Origin: Candidatus Bathyarchaeota archaeon
GTDB lineage: Archaea > Thermoproteota > Bathyarchaeia > Bathyarchaeales > Bathycorpusculaceae
Reading direction: 5' to 3'
NCBI GenBank assembly: GCA_963832745.1
Contig: CAWHVC010000004.1
Coordinates: forward strand, 1 to 64,000
DNA: 64,000 bases
Part shown: positions 56,896 through 64,000 of the stretch, piece by piece
Numbering within the stretch: position 1 is the stretch's first letter
Layout: each line of letters begins with the position of its first letter
The notes under the pieces: generated by a model
Told to the model about the DNA's origin: nothing
The model's database searches: none
What the model saw: only the letters and a program-made list of their open reading frames with translations
Translations under genes and position numbers: made by a program

Positions 56896-57510
56896 TTGGT
56901 CGCTGAACTATTTACAAAAGGTATATCTTGTTTTGTTGTTGATTATTTCTGGAGTGATGGCTTTTTGGAAAAGCAGGGCACCAAGTTGAAGGGTTACAAG
57001 CATGCTGAAAGCTTGTTTAGTGCATTATATATTGGCACGATATTCATCTCTCTTGGCGTCATCTACTTTATTCATCTTCCAAAAAGTCTTTTTCTTGAGT
57101 TAATTGACTTTTTTGACCACCTAACCCTTGCCCGTGTACCTGATACAGGCATATTTTTACCTGCACCAATCTCTCCTGCTGCATACGTTGATTTGTATAC
57201 TGCCGTGTTTCAGTTCTTCTTAGTTATTGCCGTAATAGAAGTGGTTATTTTAGTGCTTAGATTCGTGTTCGATTCGCCAGTTAAACGCAAGGCAGAAACA
57301 ATCTCTAACGTGGTCTTCTGGTTTGGCACAAGCTACCTAATCTGGACTTACCTGATGAATGCAGCAACAATTAACAAGTGGTTTGTCTTCTGGATAGGCA
57401 TCATAATAATCTTTGGCTTATCCCTAATAGCCCGCGCTTTCGCGTTGCTGGCAAAACGCAACCCTAACCCCCAAGACAAATCAGAAAGTCAAGTGCTTCC
57501 ACAAAACTAG
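56896..57510 (+). CDS. Membrane protein
   Basis: About four TM; start uncertain. Confidence 0.7.
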   Translation: MVAELFTKGISCFVVDYFWSDGFLEKQGTKLKGYKHAESLFSALYIGTIFISLGVIYFIHLPKSLFLELIDFFDHLTLARVPDTGIFLPAPISPAAYVDLYTAVFQFFLVIAVIEVVILVLRFVFDSPVKRKAETISNVVFWFGTSYLIWTYLMNAATINKWFVFWIGIIIIFGLSLIARAFALLAKRNPNPQDKSESQVLPQN

Positions 57511-58227
57511 AACTTGCCAACCCATGTCAAATGAGTCTTTAAAGAGTTTAACTTTTGTTTCTCGGGTGCTGTTCCATTCAACAGGGATTTCTTTGACCTT
57601 GTAACCTTTGCGTTCCGCGCGGACAATGGTTTCAGTGTCCCAGAACCAATGGTTAGCTTCAACCTCATCAAGTAGCGGCAACAATTTTTCCCGTTGGAAC
57701 GCTTTAAAACCGCATTGATGATCCTTTACTTTAGAGCCGAGAACTATTCTGACCATGAAATTGTAGGTTTTAGACGCGAAGCCACGCGTGAAGGTTCGTT
57801 TTACTTTGCTTTCTGAAAGCATTCTTGAACCAGTGGCTAACTGGTAGCCTTCAACTGTAACGGCGTCGATTAGTTGACTTAAATGTTTAAGGTCAGTCGC
57901 TAGGTCTACATCCATATAGATTAAAACGTTGCCTTTGGATTGTTTAAAAGAATTTTTTAACGCTCTACCTCGTCCAAGACGTTTTTCGCCATGCAAGTGA
58001 CGAACATAGGGCAGTTCTTGTACTAGTTCATCGGCTTTTTTGTCAGTGCCATCTGTGCTGCCGTCTTCAGCAATTATAATTTCGTAGGTACAGCCGTAAG
58101 TTTTGAGCGCTTGACTAATTTTTTTTACTGTCTGCTCAATTATGTCTGCTTCGTTTAAAGCTGGAAGCACAACTGTAACGTCGAGTTGCCCGGTTTTGAT
58201 TGCGTCTTGCGTTTTTAGAACACCCAT
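57481..58227 (-). CDS. GT2 polyprenol-phosphate glycosyltransferase (DPM synthase-like)
   Basis: VVLPALNE, EDGSTDGT, YMDVDL, DHQCGFKAF, WFWDTE. Confidence 0.9.
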   Translation of the reverse strand: MGVLKTQDAIKTGQLDVTVVLPALNEADIIEQTVKKISQALKTYGCTYEIIIAEDGSTDGTDKKADELVQELPYVRHLHGEKRLGRGRALKNSFKQSKGNVLIYMDVDLATDLKHLSQLIDAVTVEGYQLATGSRMLSESKVKRTFTRGFASKTYNFMVRIVLGSKVKDHQCGFKAFQREKLLPLLDEVEANHWFWDTETIVRAERKGYKVKEIPVEWNSTRETKVKLFKDSFDMGWQVLVLWKHLTF

Positions 58228-59969
58228 TGGTTAAACCATCTTAAACTTTCAGCTGTGGCGGTTGATACGGTGGCTCCTGAGATTACGGGGTAGAATAGCA
58301 CGAATAGTGCGACTACCGCTATAAAGTAGGTTGCCGCTGCAATCTTCATCCACTTGTACTTCCAATACTTGCTAATAAAATACGCTGAAGCTAGGCAGAT
58401 AATTGGCACGTTAACATAATAATGATAAATGAATAATCCGCGGCTCACAAACGCGTAAGGCAACCATTGAGCAAAGAAAACCACTGCAAGAAACGCCGCC
58501 GGCACTTCAAATTTGGGCATTTGCCGTTTTTTAAGTTCAGAAACTGCTTTGAAAATAACTAATCCTGTGATGGCAATGATTGCCGCAAAGCCCACCCACC
58601 AAACAGCTGGGTTTCCAAACAGGCTAATTGTGGAACGCATGTCACCTGGTAGAGAGCTGATGTATAGCCAGAGAGGTTTTCCGATTATTGGCCAACTCCA
58701 GCCTGGTGAAGAGTACGGATGATCAAGACCTATTGGCGCAGAGTGATAAGCAAACATGCTGTCTTGAAGCCCAACCACATTAAGGAAAGATCTACCCGCT
58801 ATCATGTCGGGAATGTAGGCCGCAAAATAAATGCCTATTGACATAATGATAAAGGCTACCAGGTAAGCGTACGGGTGATCAAATAACTCGTAAACTTTGG
58901 CGGAAAGCTTACTTTTGCTTTTTACCACTTCAGAGAGTCGTATAGCCGCCAATATGGCTAATTCACCCAAGAAACCGAAAAGAACCAGCCACTTAGTGGA
59001 GAAACCCAAAGCAAAGAACAAAAACGAAAGGAACAATGGCACAACGCTGGTGTTTTTCCAGCCCTTCTTAACTACGCCGCTTAGATAGATAAAGAAGAAC
59101 AGTTGCGAGGCTAACGAGAAAAACACGACAAACGTGTCGGTAATGCCTAGTCGTGCCTCTGTGAAATGCATGAAGTCAAATGTGAATAGGAACGCTGCTG
59201 AGAAGCCGCCGATGTAGGAGCCGAACATTTTCTTTCCTAACAGGAAGATTAGCGGAATCATCAGCATGGCAAAAATAACGTCCATAATTCGCCAGCCGAA
59301 CGGGGTTAACCCAAACGCTGCAATGCCGGTTGCGAGGATAAGTTTCCCTAAGGGTGGATGGGTCCATTCGTATGGGAACTGTGAATGCAGGTACTGTTGG
59401 GCTGTTCTTGTGAAGTATACTTCATCGAACATTGTTTCAGTCATGTAAGTGTTAGGTAACTCAACTATGCTTTGTTCATCAATCAACTTGTTGAAATCAA
59501 GGCTGGTACCATTTTCACCAGTGATTGAGGTAATTGGGATTTTCTGGCTGTTTTGGTCAAGGACTGCTATCTCGTTAACTTCAATGTTTGCTCCTTGCTC
59601 AAATTCCAAACGGATGTATCTTGTCGTGTTGTAAATGCTGGTGCTGTTCCAATTCATATACGCAAACGGGTAACCAGCAACGATTTTGCCGATTTCACTC
59701 CAGTCGCCAGGTTGGCCAGTGTAGACTTTGATAGTGCTCGTGGTTTGGCAGTCTTTCATGTAGAAATAAAGTTTGTTAACGTAGATTGGGTTTCCAAGGT
59801 CAATTACTGCAGCCTGTGGTTCAGTATTTTCTACTGTTAGGCTGTTGGATGGCACTTGTGTTGCACCCAAGTTAGTTACAGCTATGGAGAAGAAGATTAG
59901 TGACAGCAAAACCATTGTTAAAATGTCTTTTTTGTCAATATGCAAGTCAAAGTCAAAGTTGAGTTTCAT
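58215..59969 (-). CDS. Dolichyl-phosphate-mannose--protein mannosyltransferase (PMT/GT39-like)
   Basis: MFDEVYF, EWTHPPLGK, PFGWR, HPYSS..WSWP, GNPAVWW, FIYHY. Confidence 0.88.
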   Translation of the reverse strand: MKLNFDFDLHIDKKDILTMVLLSLIFFSIAVTNLGATQVPSNSLTVENTEPQAAVIDLGNPIYVNKLYFYMKDCQTTSTIKVYTGQPGDWSEIGKIVAGYPFAYMNWNSTSIYNTTRYIRLEFEQGANIEVNEIAVLDQNSQKIPITSITGENGTSLDFNKLIDEQSIVELPNTYMTETMFDEVYFTRTAQQYLHSQFPYEWTHPPLGKLILATGIAAFGLTPFGWRIMDVIFAMLMIPLIFLLGKKMFGSYIGGFSAAFLFTFDFMHFTEARLGITDTFVVFFSLASQLFFFIYLSGVVKKGWKNTSVVPLFLSFLFFALGFSTKWLVLFGFLGELAILAAIRLSEVVKSKSKLSAKVYELFDHPYAYLVAFIIMSIGIYFAAYIPDMIAGRSFLNVVGLQDSMFAYHSAPIGLDHPYSSPGWSWPIIGKPLWLYISSLPGDMRSTISLFGNPAVWWVGFAAIIAITGLVIFKAVSELKKRQMPKFEVPAAFLAVVFFAQWLPYAFVSRGLFIYHYYVNVPIICLASAYFISKYWKYKWMKIAAATYFIAVVALFVLFYPVISGATVSTATAESLRWFNQWVF

Positions 59970-61224
59970 TTGGTGTTTGCTCCTTTTTCTGCTCGTTGAT
60001 TGCTAAGGGTTCAGTTTTAAGCGCTGCTTTGCCTTTTAATTCATCCCACAATAGCAATGAACCATATAAAAACGTAATCACGTTAATGACGCCGACAACC
60101 AAAACCACGGGGTCACCAGAAAGATTGGGGCCATAACTGTAGCCCGCGTTGGCGTAAAGGTTCAGCCAGTATAAGACGTAAGCAACGTTTGTTAGGAAAG
60201 TTACAGTGATAACGCCGTAAAGCAGCCTGACTTTTCTGACAAACGGAAACATCAAAGCCAAAATGCTGATGGCTGGAAACAGGTAGCGTTCATGAATCCG
60301 TGTTGGAAGCATGAAAAAAGCGAAGAACAACATAAACGCTGCAAAGAAGACTATCATCTGATCTGATTTGCCCCAACGCTTGTTTAGAACATACAAGGTG
60401 AAAAGTGAGAAGACCGCAAATAGTGCCCAACCTAAAATGAACAGGTTGCCATCAGGAATCCATAGGCCAAATATGCCCCAGAGGTTGAATGCGTTGATGG
60501 ATGTGTAGGCGTATCCACTGTACGCGCCAAAATAGATGTCAGAAAGGAAAGTTATTGGGTTGCTCCATTGCATGGGCAAAATAACCACAAAAATAGTTGC
60601 CGTAAAAGCAGCCACTGAAAAAAGCAGACGTTTAACGCCGTTTTTCTTGAAAATCAAAAACGCTACCAACGGCAACAAAGCTATCGCCTGCGGTTTAGTT
60701 AAAACGCCAACAGCAAAACTTACCGCCGAAAGTTCAGGCTTACTTTTTAATGCAAGAATTAGCGATAGTAGAAGGAACAGGGTATAGATGGCGTCGAATT
60801 GCCCCCAAACTGCAGCGTTAAAGATTACTGCTGGGTTAAAAACATAAAGTGCAGCGGCGACAAGGCCAAGTTTGAAGCTTAACTGTTTTCGAACAAACCC
60901 GTAAATCAAGCCAGCAATTAATAGGTCGAAAATGTTTGGGACCAACTTTACAATGTAAGTTACAAAGGGTGTTCCGAAAAGACCTAAAGATTGGGCTAAT
61001 GAACCAAAACCCCAAAACAGGTAAATGTTAAACGGTGGATAATCGCACCAGCTTACAGCGTTGTAGAAAAGTCTTGGACCGTAATCAGCGGCAGTGTTAA
61101 ACCATGAAACGAAGGTGCCCATGTCGTTTTGGTAGCCTTGAAGTGGAAACAGCAGAACCCTAATTACGAAGGATACCCCTAGCATGCCAGCTAAGACTGC
61201 TATTTCACGCTTATCAAACTGCAA
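59953..61224 (-). CDS. GT-C membrane glycosyltransferase
   Basis: DYPP, FNPAVIFNAAVWGQFDA, KPQA, SINAFNLW, HERYLFP. Confidence 0.85.
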   Translation of the reverse strand: MQFDKREIAVLAGMLGVSFVIRVLLFPLQGYQNDMGTFVSWFNTAADYGPRLFYNAVSWCDYPPFNIYLFWGFGSLAQSLGLFGTPFVTYIVKLVPNIFDLLIAGLIYGFVRKQLSFKLGLVAAALYVFNPAVIFNAAVWGQFDAIYTLFLLLSLILALKSKPELSAVSFAVGVLTKPQAIALLPLVAFLIFKKNGVKRLLFSVAAFTATIFVVILPMQWSNPITFLSDIYFGAYSGYAYTSINAFNLWGIFGLWIPDGNLFILGWALFAVFSLFTLYVLNKRWGKSDQMIVFFAAFMLFFAFFMLPTRIHERYLFPAISILALMFPFVRKVRLLYGVITVTFLTNVAYVLYWLNLYANAGYSYGPNLSGDPVVLVVGVINVITFLYGSLLLWDELKGKAALKTEPLAINEQKKEQTPNETQL

Positions 61225-61648: not shown

Positions 61649-62002
61649 GTGAAGATAATTCAAATTGTTGGAGCCATCGCGGTTGCGTTTTTGTTCTTTT
61701 TGGCAGTTATCTTTGCGCTTGCTTCAACCGTTCAAGCTACGACTTCAAGATTGGCAGTTAGCGGCATACTATTTGTTACCGGAATTGCAGTGATAGTTGG
61801 CATCTACTATACAACAAGAAAACCCAAAACAGTAATCCAGCAACTGGAACTTTCAGGAAAAATGAAAGCAGCCACAATCAAATGCCCAAACTGCGGCGCG
61901 GCAGTTGACGCAAACAAAATCAAAATTGTCCAAGGCGTACCCTACGCTACTTGTCCCTACTGTGGCACAACTTTTGAGGTTACAGAGGAACCAAAATGGT
62001 AA
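61649..62002 (+). CDS. Two-TM protein with C-terminal double zinc ribbon
   Basis: CPNCGA...CPYCG, ends EEPKW; overlaps next gene. Confidence 0.85.
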   Translation: MKIIQIVGAIAVAFLFFLAVIFALASTVQATTSRLAVSGILFVTGIAVIVGIYYTTRKPKTVIQQLELSGKMKAATIKCPNCGAAVDANKIKIVQGVPYATCPYCGTTFEVTEEPKW

Positions 62003-63618
62003 AACGTGCTTTCCTGCTGGCGGTTACTGTAGCGCTTTTAGCCACGGCCACATTATGTTCAGGTCTGGCAAATGCTCAAAATTTAGCCTACAATGTTAAT
62101 CAGGAGTGGGCTCAACTTTTCATTAACCCAGATGGCACAGTGGACTTGACTTATAATATGTCATTAACCGTAACAGCGGGTACCATGCATGCTTTTGATT
62201 TGGGAATGCCTAACAGGGATTTTACCATTGGCCGCGCAGTTGACCAGTATGGAAACAATCTTAACACTTACAGTTACACGCCTGATGTGGCTTCGGTGGA
62301 TTTTAAGCAGCCTCTTAACGCTGGAGACAGCATCTGGTACACCATAACCACCAACGTCGCCGGCATGTTAAGCAACGACACGACCAACCCTGGCAATTAT
62401 GGCATGGAGTTTGCGCCTCAATGGATAGAAAATGTGCCCATCCACAACGTCCGCGTACAGATTGTTATGCCTGACGGCGTTACCGTGCAAGACGTGAAAA
62501 CTTTGCCTGACAAGTTCTGGAATAGCAGCTCAACTGTTGAAGGCAAAACAGCGCTTTACTGGGAAATCCCTGTGCTTCAAGCAAATCAGCAGTACCCAAT
62601 CGGCGTTTCTTTCCCGTCAGAGTTTCTGCCAAACTATGTTCCTACTCAACCTGGCGGAATTAACTTAGAAACCCTGCTGGATTATCTTGTTATACCCATC
62701 TTTGTAATAGTAATCATAATCGTCATTATTGTGGCCTCCAGAAGCAAAAGTAAGTACACTTCCCCAAAAGTCAGCATGGAAACATTAGGCTTAAAACGGG
62801 GCTTAACAGCTGTAGAAGCATCAAGCCTGCTTGAGTTTAAACCAACCCAAATAGTAACCGAAATCCTCTATAGCCTCCTGCAGAAACGGGCAGTCTGGGC
62901 TGAATCAACCAAACCCTCGTTGAAACTCAAGGTGCTCTCGCCGTACGAGAACAAGACTGGAACACCAGAAAATCCGTTACGCTACTACGAAATAGACTTT
63001 CTGCACTCCCTGCGGGAAGATGGCACGCTTGATGAAGAAAAACTTGCCCATACCGTCACTTACCTCCGAGACACTGTTGAGGAGAAAATGCGGGGCTACA
63101 ACCGGAAAGACACCGTGGATTATTACCGTAAAATCGTAGCCACAGCTTGGACGCAAGTGGAGCAGGCGGGAACACCTGAGCTTGCCTCAAACGCTTACAA
63201 TGAACAACTGCTCTGGCTTATGATGGACCCCAATCAGAAAACCCGCACAGAAACCGTCTTCCAAAACCGTGTTTTCCAACCTGACCCCTTATGGTTCTGG
63301 TGGTGGTACGGCTACACAATCTATCATCCACACCCAGTTTATCGTCCAAACATTAACGTTCCAGCACAGTCAGGACCTGCACCTGCCATTCCGGGCGCTG
63401 AATTTGCAAACAACATAGCAACCACTTTAGAGAACACTTCAAACAGTATAGTGCAGAACTTAGAAAAGTTTGCGAACTCTATTGTTCCGCCGCCACCAAA
63501 AGCTTCTCATGAACCAGCCCGTCATGGTTCTGACTGCGTTTGTGCATGTCATGCTTGTGCGTGTGCTTGCGCTTGTGTCTCATGCGCTTGCGCCTGCGCA
63601 GGTGGAGGAGGCAGATAA
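61996..63618 (+). CDS. Single-pass membrane protein (DUF2207-like ectodomain) with Cys-rich C-terminal tail
   Basis: Signal peptide, INPDGTVDLTY, one TM, tail CVCACHACACACACVSCACACAGGGGR. Confidence 0.88.
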   Translation: MVKRAFLLAVTVALLATATLCSGLANAQNLAYNVNQEWAQLFINPDGTVDLTYNMSLTVTAGTMHAFDLGMPNRDFTIGRAVDQYGNNLNTYSYTPDVASVDFKQPLNAGDSIWYTITTNVAGMLSNDTTNPGNYGMEFAPQWIENVPIHNVRVQIVMPDGVTVQDVKTLPDKFWNSSSTVEGKTALYWEIPVLQANQQYPIGVSFPSEFLPNYVPTQPGGINLETLLDYLVIPIFVIVIIIVIIVASRSKSKYTSPKVSMETLGLKRGLTAVEASSLLEFKPTQIVTEILYSLLQKRAVWAESTKPSLKLKVLSPYENKTGTPENPLRYYEIDFLHSLREDGTLDEEKLAHTVTYLRDTVEEKMRGYNRKDTVDYYRKIVATAWTQVEQAGTPELASNAYNEQLLWLMMDPNQKTRTETVFQNRVFQPDPLWFWWWYGYTIYHPHPVYRPNINVPAQSGPAPAIPGAEFANNIATTLENTSNSIVQNLEKFANSIVPPPPKASHEPARHGSDCVCACHACACACACVSCACACAGGGGR

Positions 63619-63620
63619 AA

Positions 63621-64000
63621 ATGAGTCTGTTTAGAAAACCAAAGATTCCCTTTGGCCGGTTTGCTTACCGCGGAACTGACAAGTATTCAGGTATGTCCTT
63701 GCAGCTACGAGTTGAACGTGACGGACGAGGAGTTATGGTAATTAACGCCAACACCGTGCTGCACTTAAACCAAACCGCCACAGCATTTGCTTACTACTTT
63801 ATGCAGGGTTTACCTGAATTGGAAGTTTTAAGTAAAATCCAAAAAACCTACAAGGTTAATCAGGAAACCGCCAAAGTTGATTATGAGAAAATCATCAATA
63901 CCATCAGCACCTTGGCGAAAACAGAAAAGATTGACCCAATAACGTTCTTGGAGATTGAACGTGAAGAACCATTTTCTTACCAGTACTCGGCGCCACTGCG
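63621..64000 (+). CDS. 3'-truncated PqqD/RRE-domain protein, probably radical SAM (not in ORF track)
   Basis: Open frame to window edge: MSLFRKP...VLHLNQTATAFAYYFMQGLPELEVLSKIQKTYKVNQETAKVDYEKIINTI...PFSYQYSAPL. Confidence 0.7.
   Translation, partial: MSLFRKPKIPFGRFAYRGTDKYSGMSLQLRVERDGRGVMVINANTVLHLNQTATAFAYYFMQGLPELEVLSKIQKTYKVNQETAKVDYEKIINTISTLAKTEKIDPITFLEIEREEPFSYQYSAPL

Follow-up and report, generated by a model that had tools for sequence, protein, structure and literature searches.

QhpD, a radical S-adenosylmethionine (rSAM) enzyme with a SPASM domain, makes intraprotein Cys thioethers in a polypeptide that stays a functional protein; the polypeptide that it modifies, a small enzyme subunit of the periplasm, has Cys-to-Asp/Glu bridges and carries a quinone cofactor. 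CrpC of Methanococcus voltae, a TIGR04463 enzyme that joins a RiPP recognition element (RRE; RiPP, ribosomally made and post-translationally modified peptide) to rSAM and SPASM domains, puts ranthionine thioethers on CrpA (PMC13692751, 2026). CrpA is a soluble, Cys-rich protein of 28.8 kDa with an N-terminal leader-like region of 47 residues and ten 17-residue repeats with C-X-X-Q/D, its modified sites include ACAGM and CAVD motifs, and a third, non-catalytic protein, CrpB, improves its modification (PMC13692751). QhpD and the γ-subunit of quinohemoprotein amine dehydrogenase are named in the discussion of the same article. Here we describe a three-gene cassette at the right end of a 64,000-nucleotide (nt) stretch of DNA from a Candidatus Bathyarchaeota archaeon (the window; positions 1-64000 of contig C4 in a 3.02-Mb genome of 5 contigs, 99% complete), in which the gene of a membrane protein with a C-terminal tail of alternating Cys and Ala is followed by that of an RRE-rSAM-SPASM enzyme. 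We propose, with a probability of roughly 55%, that the enzyme crosslinks the tail by thioethers and that the tail protein is the RiPP-like substrate of a three-gene maturation cassette.

Judged by analogy, the closest precedent of the cassette is CrpA/CrpC. Both systems place the gene of an RRE-rSAM-SPASM enzyme beside that of a Cys-rich protein and both have Cys-Ala-containing motifs; the target in each is a protein and not a short peptide, for the present cassette by proposal, and the Crp thioethers stay on the protein. The candidate substrate described here differs from CrpA in being a 540-residue single-pass membrane protein with a C-terminal leader-core order and a strictly alternating Cys/Ala core, the cassette spans both domains of life, and the enzyme, unlike CrpC, does not have TIGR04463 among the best 25 of the 70 NCBIfam families that match it. 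The Crp screen asked for at least 5% Cys in proteins above 250 residues (PMC13692751), and the tail protein would escape it because its 11 Cys make up 2% of the sequence. With SkfB, AlbA, CteB/SCIFF and SuiB the enzyme shares a three-domain architecture and fold, an adjacent substrate gene and a Cys-rich core. However, sacti- and ranthipeptide systems act on short peptides that have N-terminal leaders and are exported, and proteases or transporters usually go with them, whereas no protease or exporter recurs here and the enzyme lies below every curated model of those synthases. ACGX (TIGR04340, rSAM_ACGX), whose substrate is a small peptide of short Cys-containing repeats rich in Ala and Gly, likewise ties an rSAM/SPASM enzyme to a Cys-repeat substrate, but the window enzyme, at 72.5 bits against a cut-off of 400, is not a member. 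From the QhpD substrate the tail protein is set apart, by description, by its membrane anchor and its Cys/Ala repeat.

The tail protein also resembles the DUF2207 proteins (PF09972/PF20990), which have an extracytoplasmic β-sandwich, a membrane span and a cytoplasmic C-terminal part, but it scores 14.9 bits against the PF09972 cut-off of 24.4; among the homologues at 65-70% identity, some go by the name DUF2207 in their sources or have a precomputed PF09972 match. The only functional work on DUF2207 that was found, a paper on S. mutans SMU.243 (PMC10457818), reportedly concerns neither a tail nor an rSAM enzyme. No publication on the tail motif, on Cys-Ala repeats or on DUF2207 with radical SAM was found in a search whose scope left out most subscription journals and the supplements of PMC13692751. 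The cassette is real, strongly conserved, cross-domain, in no curated family and apparently undescribed, and the comparisons support a system of rSAM/SPASM maturation of a Cys-rich substrate, here the tail of a membrane protein. Its three genes are tightly packed on the plus strand:

61649..62002, plus strand: gene 1, zinc-ribbon membrane protein of 117 residues; open reading frame (ORF), first in the cassette
61996..63618, plus strand: gene 2, DUF2207-like single-pass membrane protein of 540 residues, the proposed substrate; ORF overlapping gene 1 by 7 nt
63621 (ATG) to position 64946 of contig C4, plus strand: gene 3, RRE-rSAM-SPASM enzyme of 441 residues; starts after a 2-nt gap behind gene 2

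The close coupling of these genes, a 7-nt overlap and then a 2-nt gap, had been pointed out in a preliminary description of the window, and both are present in the sequence. The part of gene 3 inside the window (63621..64000, plus strand) encodes the first 126 residues, which make up the PqqD/RRE domain.

Tail and enzyme are linked across genomes in both directions. In the same genus, 19 of 19 other loci hold the same trio in the same order. With the tail protein as the only guide, we then chose 80 loci in species-representative genomes, and counted an enzyme as orthologous at 270 bits or more. By record titles these loci are 22 archaeal (Bathyarchaeia 9, other Thermoproteota 3, Nanoarchaeia 1, Methanomassiliicoccales 3, other Thermoplasmatota 1, a "Halobacteria" label 1, Hodarchaeota 1 and Heimdallarchaeota 3), 42 from Chloroflexota, 15 from other bacteria (including Planctomycetota, Sabulitectum, Aminicenantes, Acidobacteriota, Hydrogenedentales, Nitrospirales and Polyangiaceae) and 1 unlabelled. 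An orthologous enzyme is present in 72 of the 80 and is split by frameshifts in 2 more, giving 74/80; the possibility raised beforehand, that homologous tails usually occur without the enzyme, is not borne out. The enzyme usually starts -84 to +87 nt from the tail stop codon, and the linkage is kept in the Planctomycetota-type gene order of zinc-ribbon protein, enzyme, paralogue and tail protein. Six tail loci have no enzyme: four with room on both sides (L044, L056, L060, L081) and two at contig ends, one (L073) ending 89 nt after the tail gene and the other (L099) starting 32 nt before it. The whole genomes of all of these except L073 were searched, and 5/5 hold an orthologue elsewhere (expectation value (E) 2.5e-169 to 1.4e-198), which adjoins a second tail protein in two of them.

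The reverse test started from 80 metagenome loci chosen through the enzyme alone, 76 of which are informative, the other 4 beginning at a contig end. A tail ORF is present in 74/76: it ends no more than 400 nt upstream of the enzyme in 71, lies upstream with a 14-residue read-on in 2, and lies downstream in 1. Of 61 related genomes, 24 have both genes and 36 have neither, a concordance of 60/61; the discordant genome has a weak DUF2207-like match alone (E 2e-15). Within the genus both genes occur in 22 of 36 genomes, and they are the same genomes; therefore, gain and loss concern the whole cassette as one unit. The co-occurrence of tail and enzyme is near-obligate in both directions, and the cassette is conserved across domains, in Bathyarchaeia, Asgard, Methanomassiliicoccales, Anaerolineae, Planctomycetota and others.

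Several further proteins accompany the pair in the 80 tail loci. The 117-residue protein has two N-terminal hydrophobic helices (hydropathy 1-33 and 31-56) followed by CPNCG...CPYCG; its zinc ribbon is placed in the cytoplasm, and many zinc-ribbon models of Pfam and NCBIfam match just below cut-off. A homologue was found in 62 of the 80 loci, which are from other taxa, and not detected in 18, so that the zinc-ribbon membrane protein suggested as a partner is indeed a recurrent third member. A paralogue of the enzyme, of about 370-470 residues, follows in 40/80 loci (Anaerolineae and Planctomycetota). It aligns to the enzyme with 30% identity over residues 8-382 of 386, has no CX3CX2C motif, none of the cluster cysteines and mostly only 1-4 Cys; 42 of the 44 ORFs in its score class are without CX3CX2C, and the other 2 are halves of a split true enzyme. 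Since PqqD matched 5 of the 10 paralogues scanned, four of them above the Pfam cut-off, this Cys-poor protein is probably a dead, RRE-bearing helper that would bind the leader. A class I SAM methyltransferase (Methyltransf_11, 2.7e-19) is present in 47/80 loci, which include those of Asgard, Methanomassiliicoccales, Sabulitectum and Planctomycetota and exclude the Bathyarchaeial ones, and a protein of 113-159 residues without a Pfam match lies between enzyme and paralogue in 14. Examples of the extra members, within the set L036-L098, are L068:11135-12295 and L068:12282-13052. Searches of the window's own genome with tblastn for the methyltransferase and the dead paralogue gave weak matches only; thus, the Bathyarchaeial version appears to be a minimal three-gene form. 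No protease, exporter, metal transporter or chaperone recurs in the cassette. The release of a modified peptide, one of two outcomes that the preliminary description had considered, is therefore unlikely, as no protease or exporter recurs.

The recurrence of the zinc-ribbon protein could also mean that it, or a membrane lipid or small molecule, is what the enzyme acts on, and that the tail merely docks or regulates. Archaeal rSAM/SPASM enzymes modify lipids as well, and GDGT-MAS is among the fold matches of the enzyme (E 2.5e-12). Nevertheless, we regard such a substrate as very improbable: the zinc-ribbon gene is undetected in the 18 loci mentioned above while tail and enzyme almost always occur as a pair, the enzyme carries an RRE, and no other part of the tail protein is conserved nearly as well as the tail itself, which persists where the rest falls to 24-30% identity.

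The assignment of gene 3 as a radical SAM enzyme, made from its N-terminal part, holds on reading the contig past position 64000. The CX3CX2C motif, CQNDCIHC, lies at residues 136-143 (contig C4:64026-64049), just beyond the window, and is present in 71 of 72 orthologues. Pfam identifies Radical_SAM (2.4e-24) and the SPASM domain that had been sought there (1.8e-12), the latter in 34/34 orthologues. Nine cysteines (C136, C140, C143, C361, C379, C416, C419, C425 and C429) are invariant in these 34 sequences from both domains, and C347, at least 90% conserved, is the seventh SPASM Cys. The AlphaFold model of the enzyme is of high confidence, with a predicted score in the local distance difference test (pLDDT) of 90.1 and a predicted template-modelling score (pTM) of 0.90. 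Its N-terminus consists of strands 26-31, 37-41 and 45-49 followed by three helices, a β-β-β-α-α-α arrangement ahead of the barrel. Pfam PqqD is sub-threshold on the window enzyme (E 0.022-0.058) and matches 23/34 orthologues at E ≤ 0.01, the best at 7e-7; together with the model fold and the Foldseek alignments to SuiB and CteB, which span the full length, this upholds the PqqD/RRE domain proposed for the ORF carrying LNQTATAFAYY.... The best Foldseek matches are the solved structures of SkfB (5.7e-19), SuiB (1.4e-16), CteB (5.3e-14) and PqqE (7.4e-14), with BlsE and anSME (fold E 2.1e-12) also among the top matches, and a search by sequence profile gives SkfB (1.5e-31) and PqqE (3.9e-27); the nearest solved structures are thus maturases of the rSAM/SPASM class that modify peptides. 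Paralogues in the window's genome are at most 29% identical (144 bits), compared to 38-49% for orthologues across domains.

NCBIfam gives 70 families at E ≤ 0.01 for the enzyme, and no curated cut-off is reached among the best 25 of them. The best scores are those of heme-pathway rSAMs, with NirJ2 at the top (142.6 bits against 500); AlbA reaches 85 of 850 bits, SkfB 80 of 300 and StsB 91 of 625. AhbD, mycofactocin MftC, PqqE, ACGX, ScmE/F and GeoRSP are likewise equivalogs below cut-off. The AlbA model aligns residues 41-433 to its positions 30-416 of 442. Thus, with CX3CX2C, SPASM and RRE present and no equivalog reached, the enzyme is an RRE-rSAM-SPASM maturase of an unnamed family, and its chemistry is not assigned by sequence because no curated thioether family's cut-off is attained.

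The enzyme might then act on the tail by a chemistry that makes no thioethers, such as epimerisation of alternate residues (YydG/PoyD-like), Cys oxidation to formylglycine or dehydroalanine (anSME-like), other C-C or C-S links, or methylthiolation, and the methyltransferase would then complete the product. Such a chemistry is backed by the same linkage evidence as thioethers, the epimerase EpeE and anSME are among the fold matches, the methyltransferase recurs as described, and the strict alternation of the tail would suit a chemistry that addresses alternate residues. However, the best sequence and fold matches are SkfB, SuiB, CteB and PqqE, not epimerases or anSME, and the sequence match to anSME covers the SPASM part only (1.8e-9). 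The recognition motif of anSME, C/S-x-P/A-x-R, does not occur in the tail, whether with Ser or in the form C-x-P/A-x-R. Furthermore, where Cys-rich cores are encoded next to RRE-SPASM enzymes, the products reported to date are thioethers (PMC13692751). On balance, we consider a product free of thioethers unlikely.

The tail protein has the anatomy that had been outlined for it, namely a signal peptide, an ectodomain, one transmembrane helix and a predicted cytoplasmic domain; all are in the 540-residue sequence, and hydropathy and the AlphaFold model (mean pLDDT 81.7) agree. Its parts are as follows:

61996..62076, plus strand: signal peptide or N-terminal hydrophobic helix, residues 1-27 (hydropathy 1-26; model helix 2-25)
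62086..62616, plus strand: extracellular β-sandwich, residues 31-207 (pLDDT mostly >90)
62665..62739, plus strand: single transmembrane helix, residues 224-248 (hydropathy peak 3.25; model helix 224-248)
62803..63300, plus strand: cytoplasmic helical or winged-helix-like domain, approximately residues 270-435 (pLDDT 85-97; conserved RGLTAVEA motif and conserved alignment columns)
63394..63510, plus strand: leader-like segment, residues 467-505 (model helices 467-485 and 489-496)
63535..63615, plus strand: core tail CVCACHACACACACVSCACACAGGGGR, residues 514-540, the proposed modification site

A putative signal peptide cleavage site follows ANA (read by eye). Foldseek was run on the whole model and identified the ectodomain alone, which is matched best by ribophorin I/Ost1, a part of oligosaccharyltransferase, and by the N-domain of M1 aminopeptidases (E 7e-11 to 1e-7). 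The basic stretch SRSKSK stands directly after the transmembrane helix. Given the single span and this stretch (the positive-inside rule), the C-terminal half and the tail are predicted to be cytoplasmic, which would put the tail on the same side as the enzyme. For the cytoplasmic domain, feature matches in the ESM Atlas are Chloroflexota "DUF2207" clusters (0.93-0.94) and a DUF2207_C cluster (0.88), which serve as a lead only. An aromatic, poorly modelled stretch separates this domain from helices 467-496. The leader-like segment begins with an amphipathic helix (FANxI..LE..S..IV....F) and continues with a proline-rich motif (PPPPK here, VTxxTNPxP in bacteria), and in bacterial homologues a variable Gly/Ser linker leads on to the core. 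Helix and proline motif are conserved over an alignment of 33 relatives with 24-44% identity to the window protein. Read from the sequence, the C-terminus thus has a RiPP-like order of helix, proline motif, linker and core, and we infer that the leader-like segment is what the RRE recognises.

Homologues of the tail protein number 1605 at E ≤ 0.001 among the 8000 candidates scored, and 557 at the same threshold among representatives of 50%-identity clusters; the closest are labelled Candidatus Bathyarchaeia. In four genomes of the same genus the gene is split into 2-3 ORFs, with the ectodomain apart from the cytoplasmic part:

G003:C1:1801526-1803149, G005:C12:33476-35214, G010:C10:40844-42473 and G028:C27:25242-26875: split tail-protein genes; G028 also has internal stops

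The enzyme beside them gives a full-length match in three and a match to residues 2-356 only in G003. These split genes may be copies in decay, artefacts of assembly or genuine two-piece forms.

The 10-Cys tail that closes the protein from position 63535 is as it was first described, with its ten Cys within 21 residues. It is present in 120/120 of the closest homologues (65-100% identity) and in 96 of the 102 distant relatives of at least 480 residues found among 150 representatives of 50%-identity clusters, a count that includes one (P0186) with a Cys-x variant overlooked by the regular expression; it is absent from the other 6. Two types occur. The archaeal type is C-x-C-A-C-x-x-C-A-C-A-C-A-C-V-S-C-A-C-A-C-A-[GS]-G-G.., with 10 Cys, and the mainly bacterial type is ..C-A-C-A-C-A-C-A-G-C-A-C-A-C-A-G-G-G-R, with 7; the core common to both is CACACAC-(AG or VS)-CACACA-GGG. 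Among 30 distinct DNA versions of the archaeal type, the residue never changes at the ten Cys and seven Ala positions, yet TGC and TGT as well as all four GCN codons are in use there. Because the residues are invariant and the synonymous codons vary, selection acts on the protein, and the tail peptide, alanines included, is under intense purifying selection. The argument from varied Ala codons that had been made for this one tail is thereby upheld across the 30 versions. The tail persists across phyla even at the low overall identities cited above. A microsatellite origin is ruled out by the codon variety at invariant residues and by the weak 6-nt period given by Tandem Repeats Finder (72% matches, score 32).

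A six-frame scan of the 3.02-Mb genome gave no second CA tail. Across genome contigs the tail pattern matched at least 597 times, and 505 of these matches do not encode a relative of the tail protein. Among short proteins (30-296 residues), 187 match tail residues 470-540 at E ≤ 0.01; judged by scores and identities (56-86%), the best 120 of these belong to the same family, many of them on contigs of about 1-2 kb, and no free precursor peptide was recognised among them. In two metagenome loci (L127:3973-4110 and L131:4900-5040) the stop is lost after ...CACACAGGGVG, and 14 further residues of IKGDGVRP type read on into the start region of the enzyme gene.

The Gly codons that close the tail (63601-63620) are biased to Shine-Dalgarno-like GGAGG or GGTGG a few bases before the enzyme ATG. 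In 171 distinct tails the second Gly is GGA in 101 and a Shine-Dalgarno-like hexamer is present in 148; therefore, the GGG(G)R end may have a double use, in the protein and in translational coupling. This end is kept even where the tail gene comes last in the cassette. The enzyme reading frame stays open back across the stretch that encodes the tail (TTG at 63540); in this frame the CA repeat translates into Leu/Cys/Arg repeats, and some database entries and longest-ORF calls have spurious N-terminal extensions or frame-shifted tails (P0224, P0265, L047).

The Cys/Ala core (63535-63600) has a Kyte-Doolittle value of 1.98 over 19 residues, and simple predictors could call it transmembrane. Since this exceeds the threshold of 1.6, the stretch might be read as a hydrophobic C-terminal membrane anchor or a site of S-acylation, unrelated to the neighbouring enzyme. 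Such a role is hardly credible: the bacterial core, at 15 residues, is too short for a membrane span, no helix is predicted in the tail of the model, and this reading offers no account of the near-obligate linkage to the enzyme.

The pattern of the tail also bears on whether it is primarily a metal or iron-sulfur site, with a metallothionein-like Cys face on a β-hairpin CACACAC-xx-CACACA, and whether the enzyme builds or inserts a cluster or cofactor, or uses the tail as a scaffold, without crosslinking it. C-x-C repeats are typical metal-thiolate ligands, both tail types keep the arrangement of 4+3 Cys about a turn of two residues (AG or VS), the invariance of Ala fits a tightly packed face, and the hosts are anaerobes by label. 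Pointing the other way, the RRE, the leader-like segment and the dead paralogue with its RRE are typical marks of peptide-directed maturases, rSAMs of cluster assembly such as NifB are not known to use RREs, and metal transporters and chaperones are not among the recurrent cassette members. The Crp system is upregulated on pyrite, and its authors consider that it may bind metals (PMC13692751), which would fit a metal site. Taken together, we judge a tail that serves primarily to hold metal to be rather improbable.

For thioether crosslinking of the tail, the following course may be envisaged. The tail protein would sit in the membrane with its β-sandwich outside and its folded domain inside, and its C-terminus would amount to a RiPP precursor fused to a protein. 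The enzyme, probably translationally coupled to the upstream tail gene, would bind the leader-like helix and proline motif through its PqqD-type RRE, and the flexible linker would let the core reach the active site. There the radical SAM cluster, with two SPASM clusters, would take a hydrogen from a core residue, and a Cys sulfur would close the thioether, possibly while held on an auxiliary cluster. The Cys sulfur is held in this way in CteB. Several intramolecular bridges of the sactionine or ranthionine type could arise between Cys sulfur and the carbons of neighbouring Ala, Gly, Val or Ser, and because Cys stands at every second position with these residues as sole acceptors, several overlapping small rings would be expected; a bond from Cys S to Ala Cβ would chemically be a lanthionine. 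The product would remain on the membrane protein as a rigid, sulfur-rich knot, which may be a metal- or redox-interacting module. In Anaerolineae and Planctomycetota the dead RRE paralogue probably helps with presentation of the tail. The methyltransferase, where it occurs in many versions from bacteria and some from archaea (Asgard, Methanomassiliicoccales), probably adds a further step.

We infer that the tail is the substrate of the enzyme; that the product is a thioether, and the chemistry as a whole, is suggested by analogy. Several points weigh against this reading. The enzyme of three tail loci lies elsewhere in the genome, more than 4 kb away, and no tail ORF was found at two of the enzyme loci (L172 and L176) within the available sequence. 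The enzyme reaches the curated model of no thioether-forming NCBIfam family. The acceptors in the core would be Ala, Gly, Val and Ser, with no C-X-X-Q/D and no Asp/Asn as in ranthipeptides and CrpA, and the invariance of Ala would fit a metal-binding, two-faced β-hairpin equally well. The tail is disordered in the model (pLDDT <50), and the support for chemistry at the tail is computational throughout. A predicted complex of the enzyme (with three 4Fe-4S clusters and SAM) and tail-protein residues 430-540 scored 0.01 against a mark of 0.32, and counts neither way. A search of sequencing runs returned five DNA-type marsh-metagenome runs (word shares 0.07-0.09) and no RNA run.

A bolder variant of the crosslinking proposal is that the enzyme builds a covalently tethered prosthetic group on the tail as a scaffold, either a ladder of Cys-to-Ala thioethers, lanthionine-like but made by radical chemistry, or a thioether-caged metal-sulfur centre; the dead paralogue and the methyltransferase would assist where present. 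We offer this tentatively, as a possibility with the odds well against it. If true, it would make a ribophorin-like single-pass protein into a redox- or metal-sensing or electron-handling module in anaerobic Archaea, including Asgard, and Bacteria.

Around the cassette, a candidate TTTAAA box, spotted by eye, lies about 24-29 nt 5′ of the GTG of gene 1. Three genes just upstream are transcribed divergently (57481-61224, minus strand): one for a GT2 glycosyltransferase (3e-26), one for a PMT-type dolichyl-phosphate-mannose protein mannosyltransferase (PMT_4TMC, 7.9e-25) and one for a polytopic membrane protein of 423 residues without a Pfam match. The gene after the enzyme, outside the window (contig C4:65026-66264; L022:4026-5264), encodes 412 residues, the N-terminal part of which is a phosphatase domain of the HAD-IB/SerB-like kind (Pfam HAD 3.1e-8; NCBIfam serB 7.8e-13, under cut-off), and this HAD-type gene lies outside the cassette in the other taxa examined.

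The findings point to a protein modification system that acts on a membrane protein in anaerobic archaea and bacteria and is so far undescribed in the literature searched. The cassette would add a large cross-domain family, with the 557 cluster representatives given above and record labels from about a dozen phyla, and its Cys/Ala core, invariant from Bathyarchaeia to Planctomycetota, is among the most strictly conserved short motifs. Because two or three genes suffice and a cultured host exists, Ornatilinea apprima P3M-1, whose locus L068 encodes the zinc-ribbon protein, the tail protein, the enzyme, the dead paralogue and the methyltransferase, the system is directly testable. It would offer a first way into the function of one branch of the widespread DUF2207 membrane proteins and of sulfur-rich tails in anaerobes.

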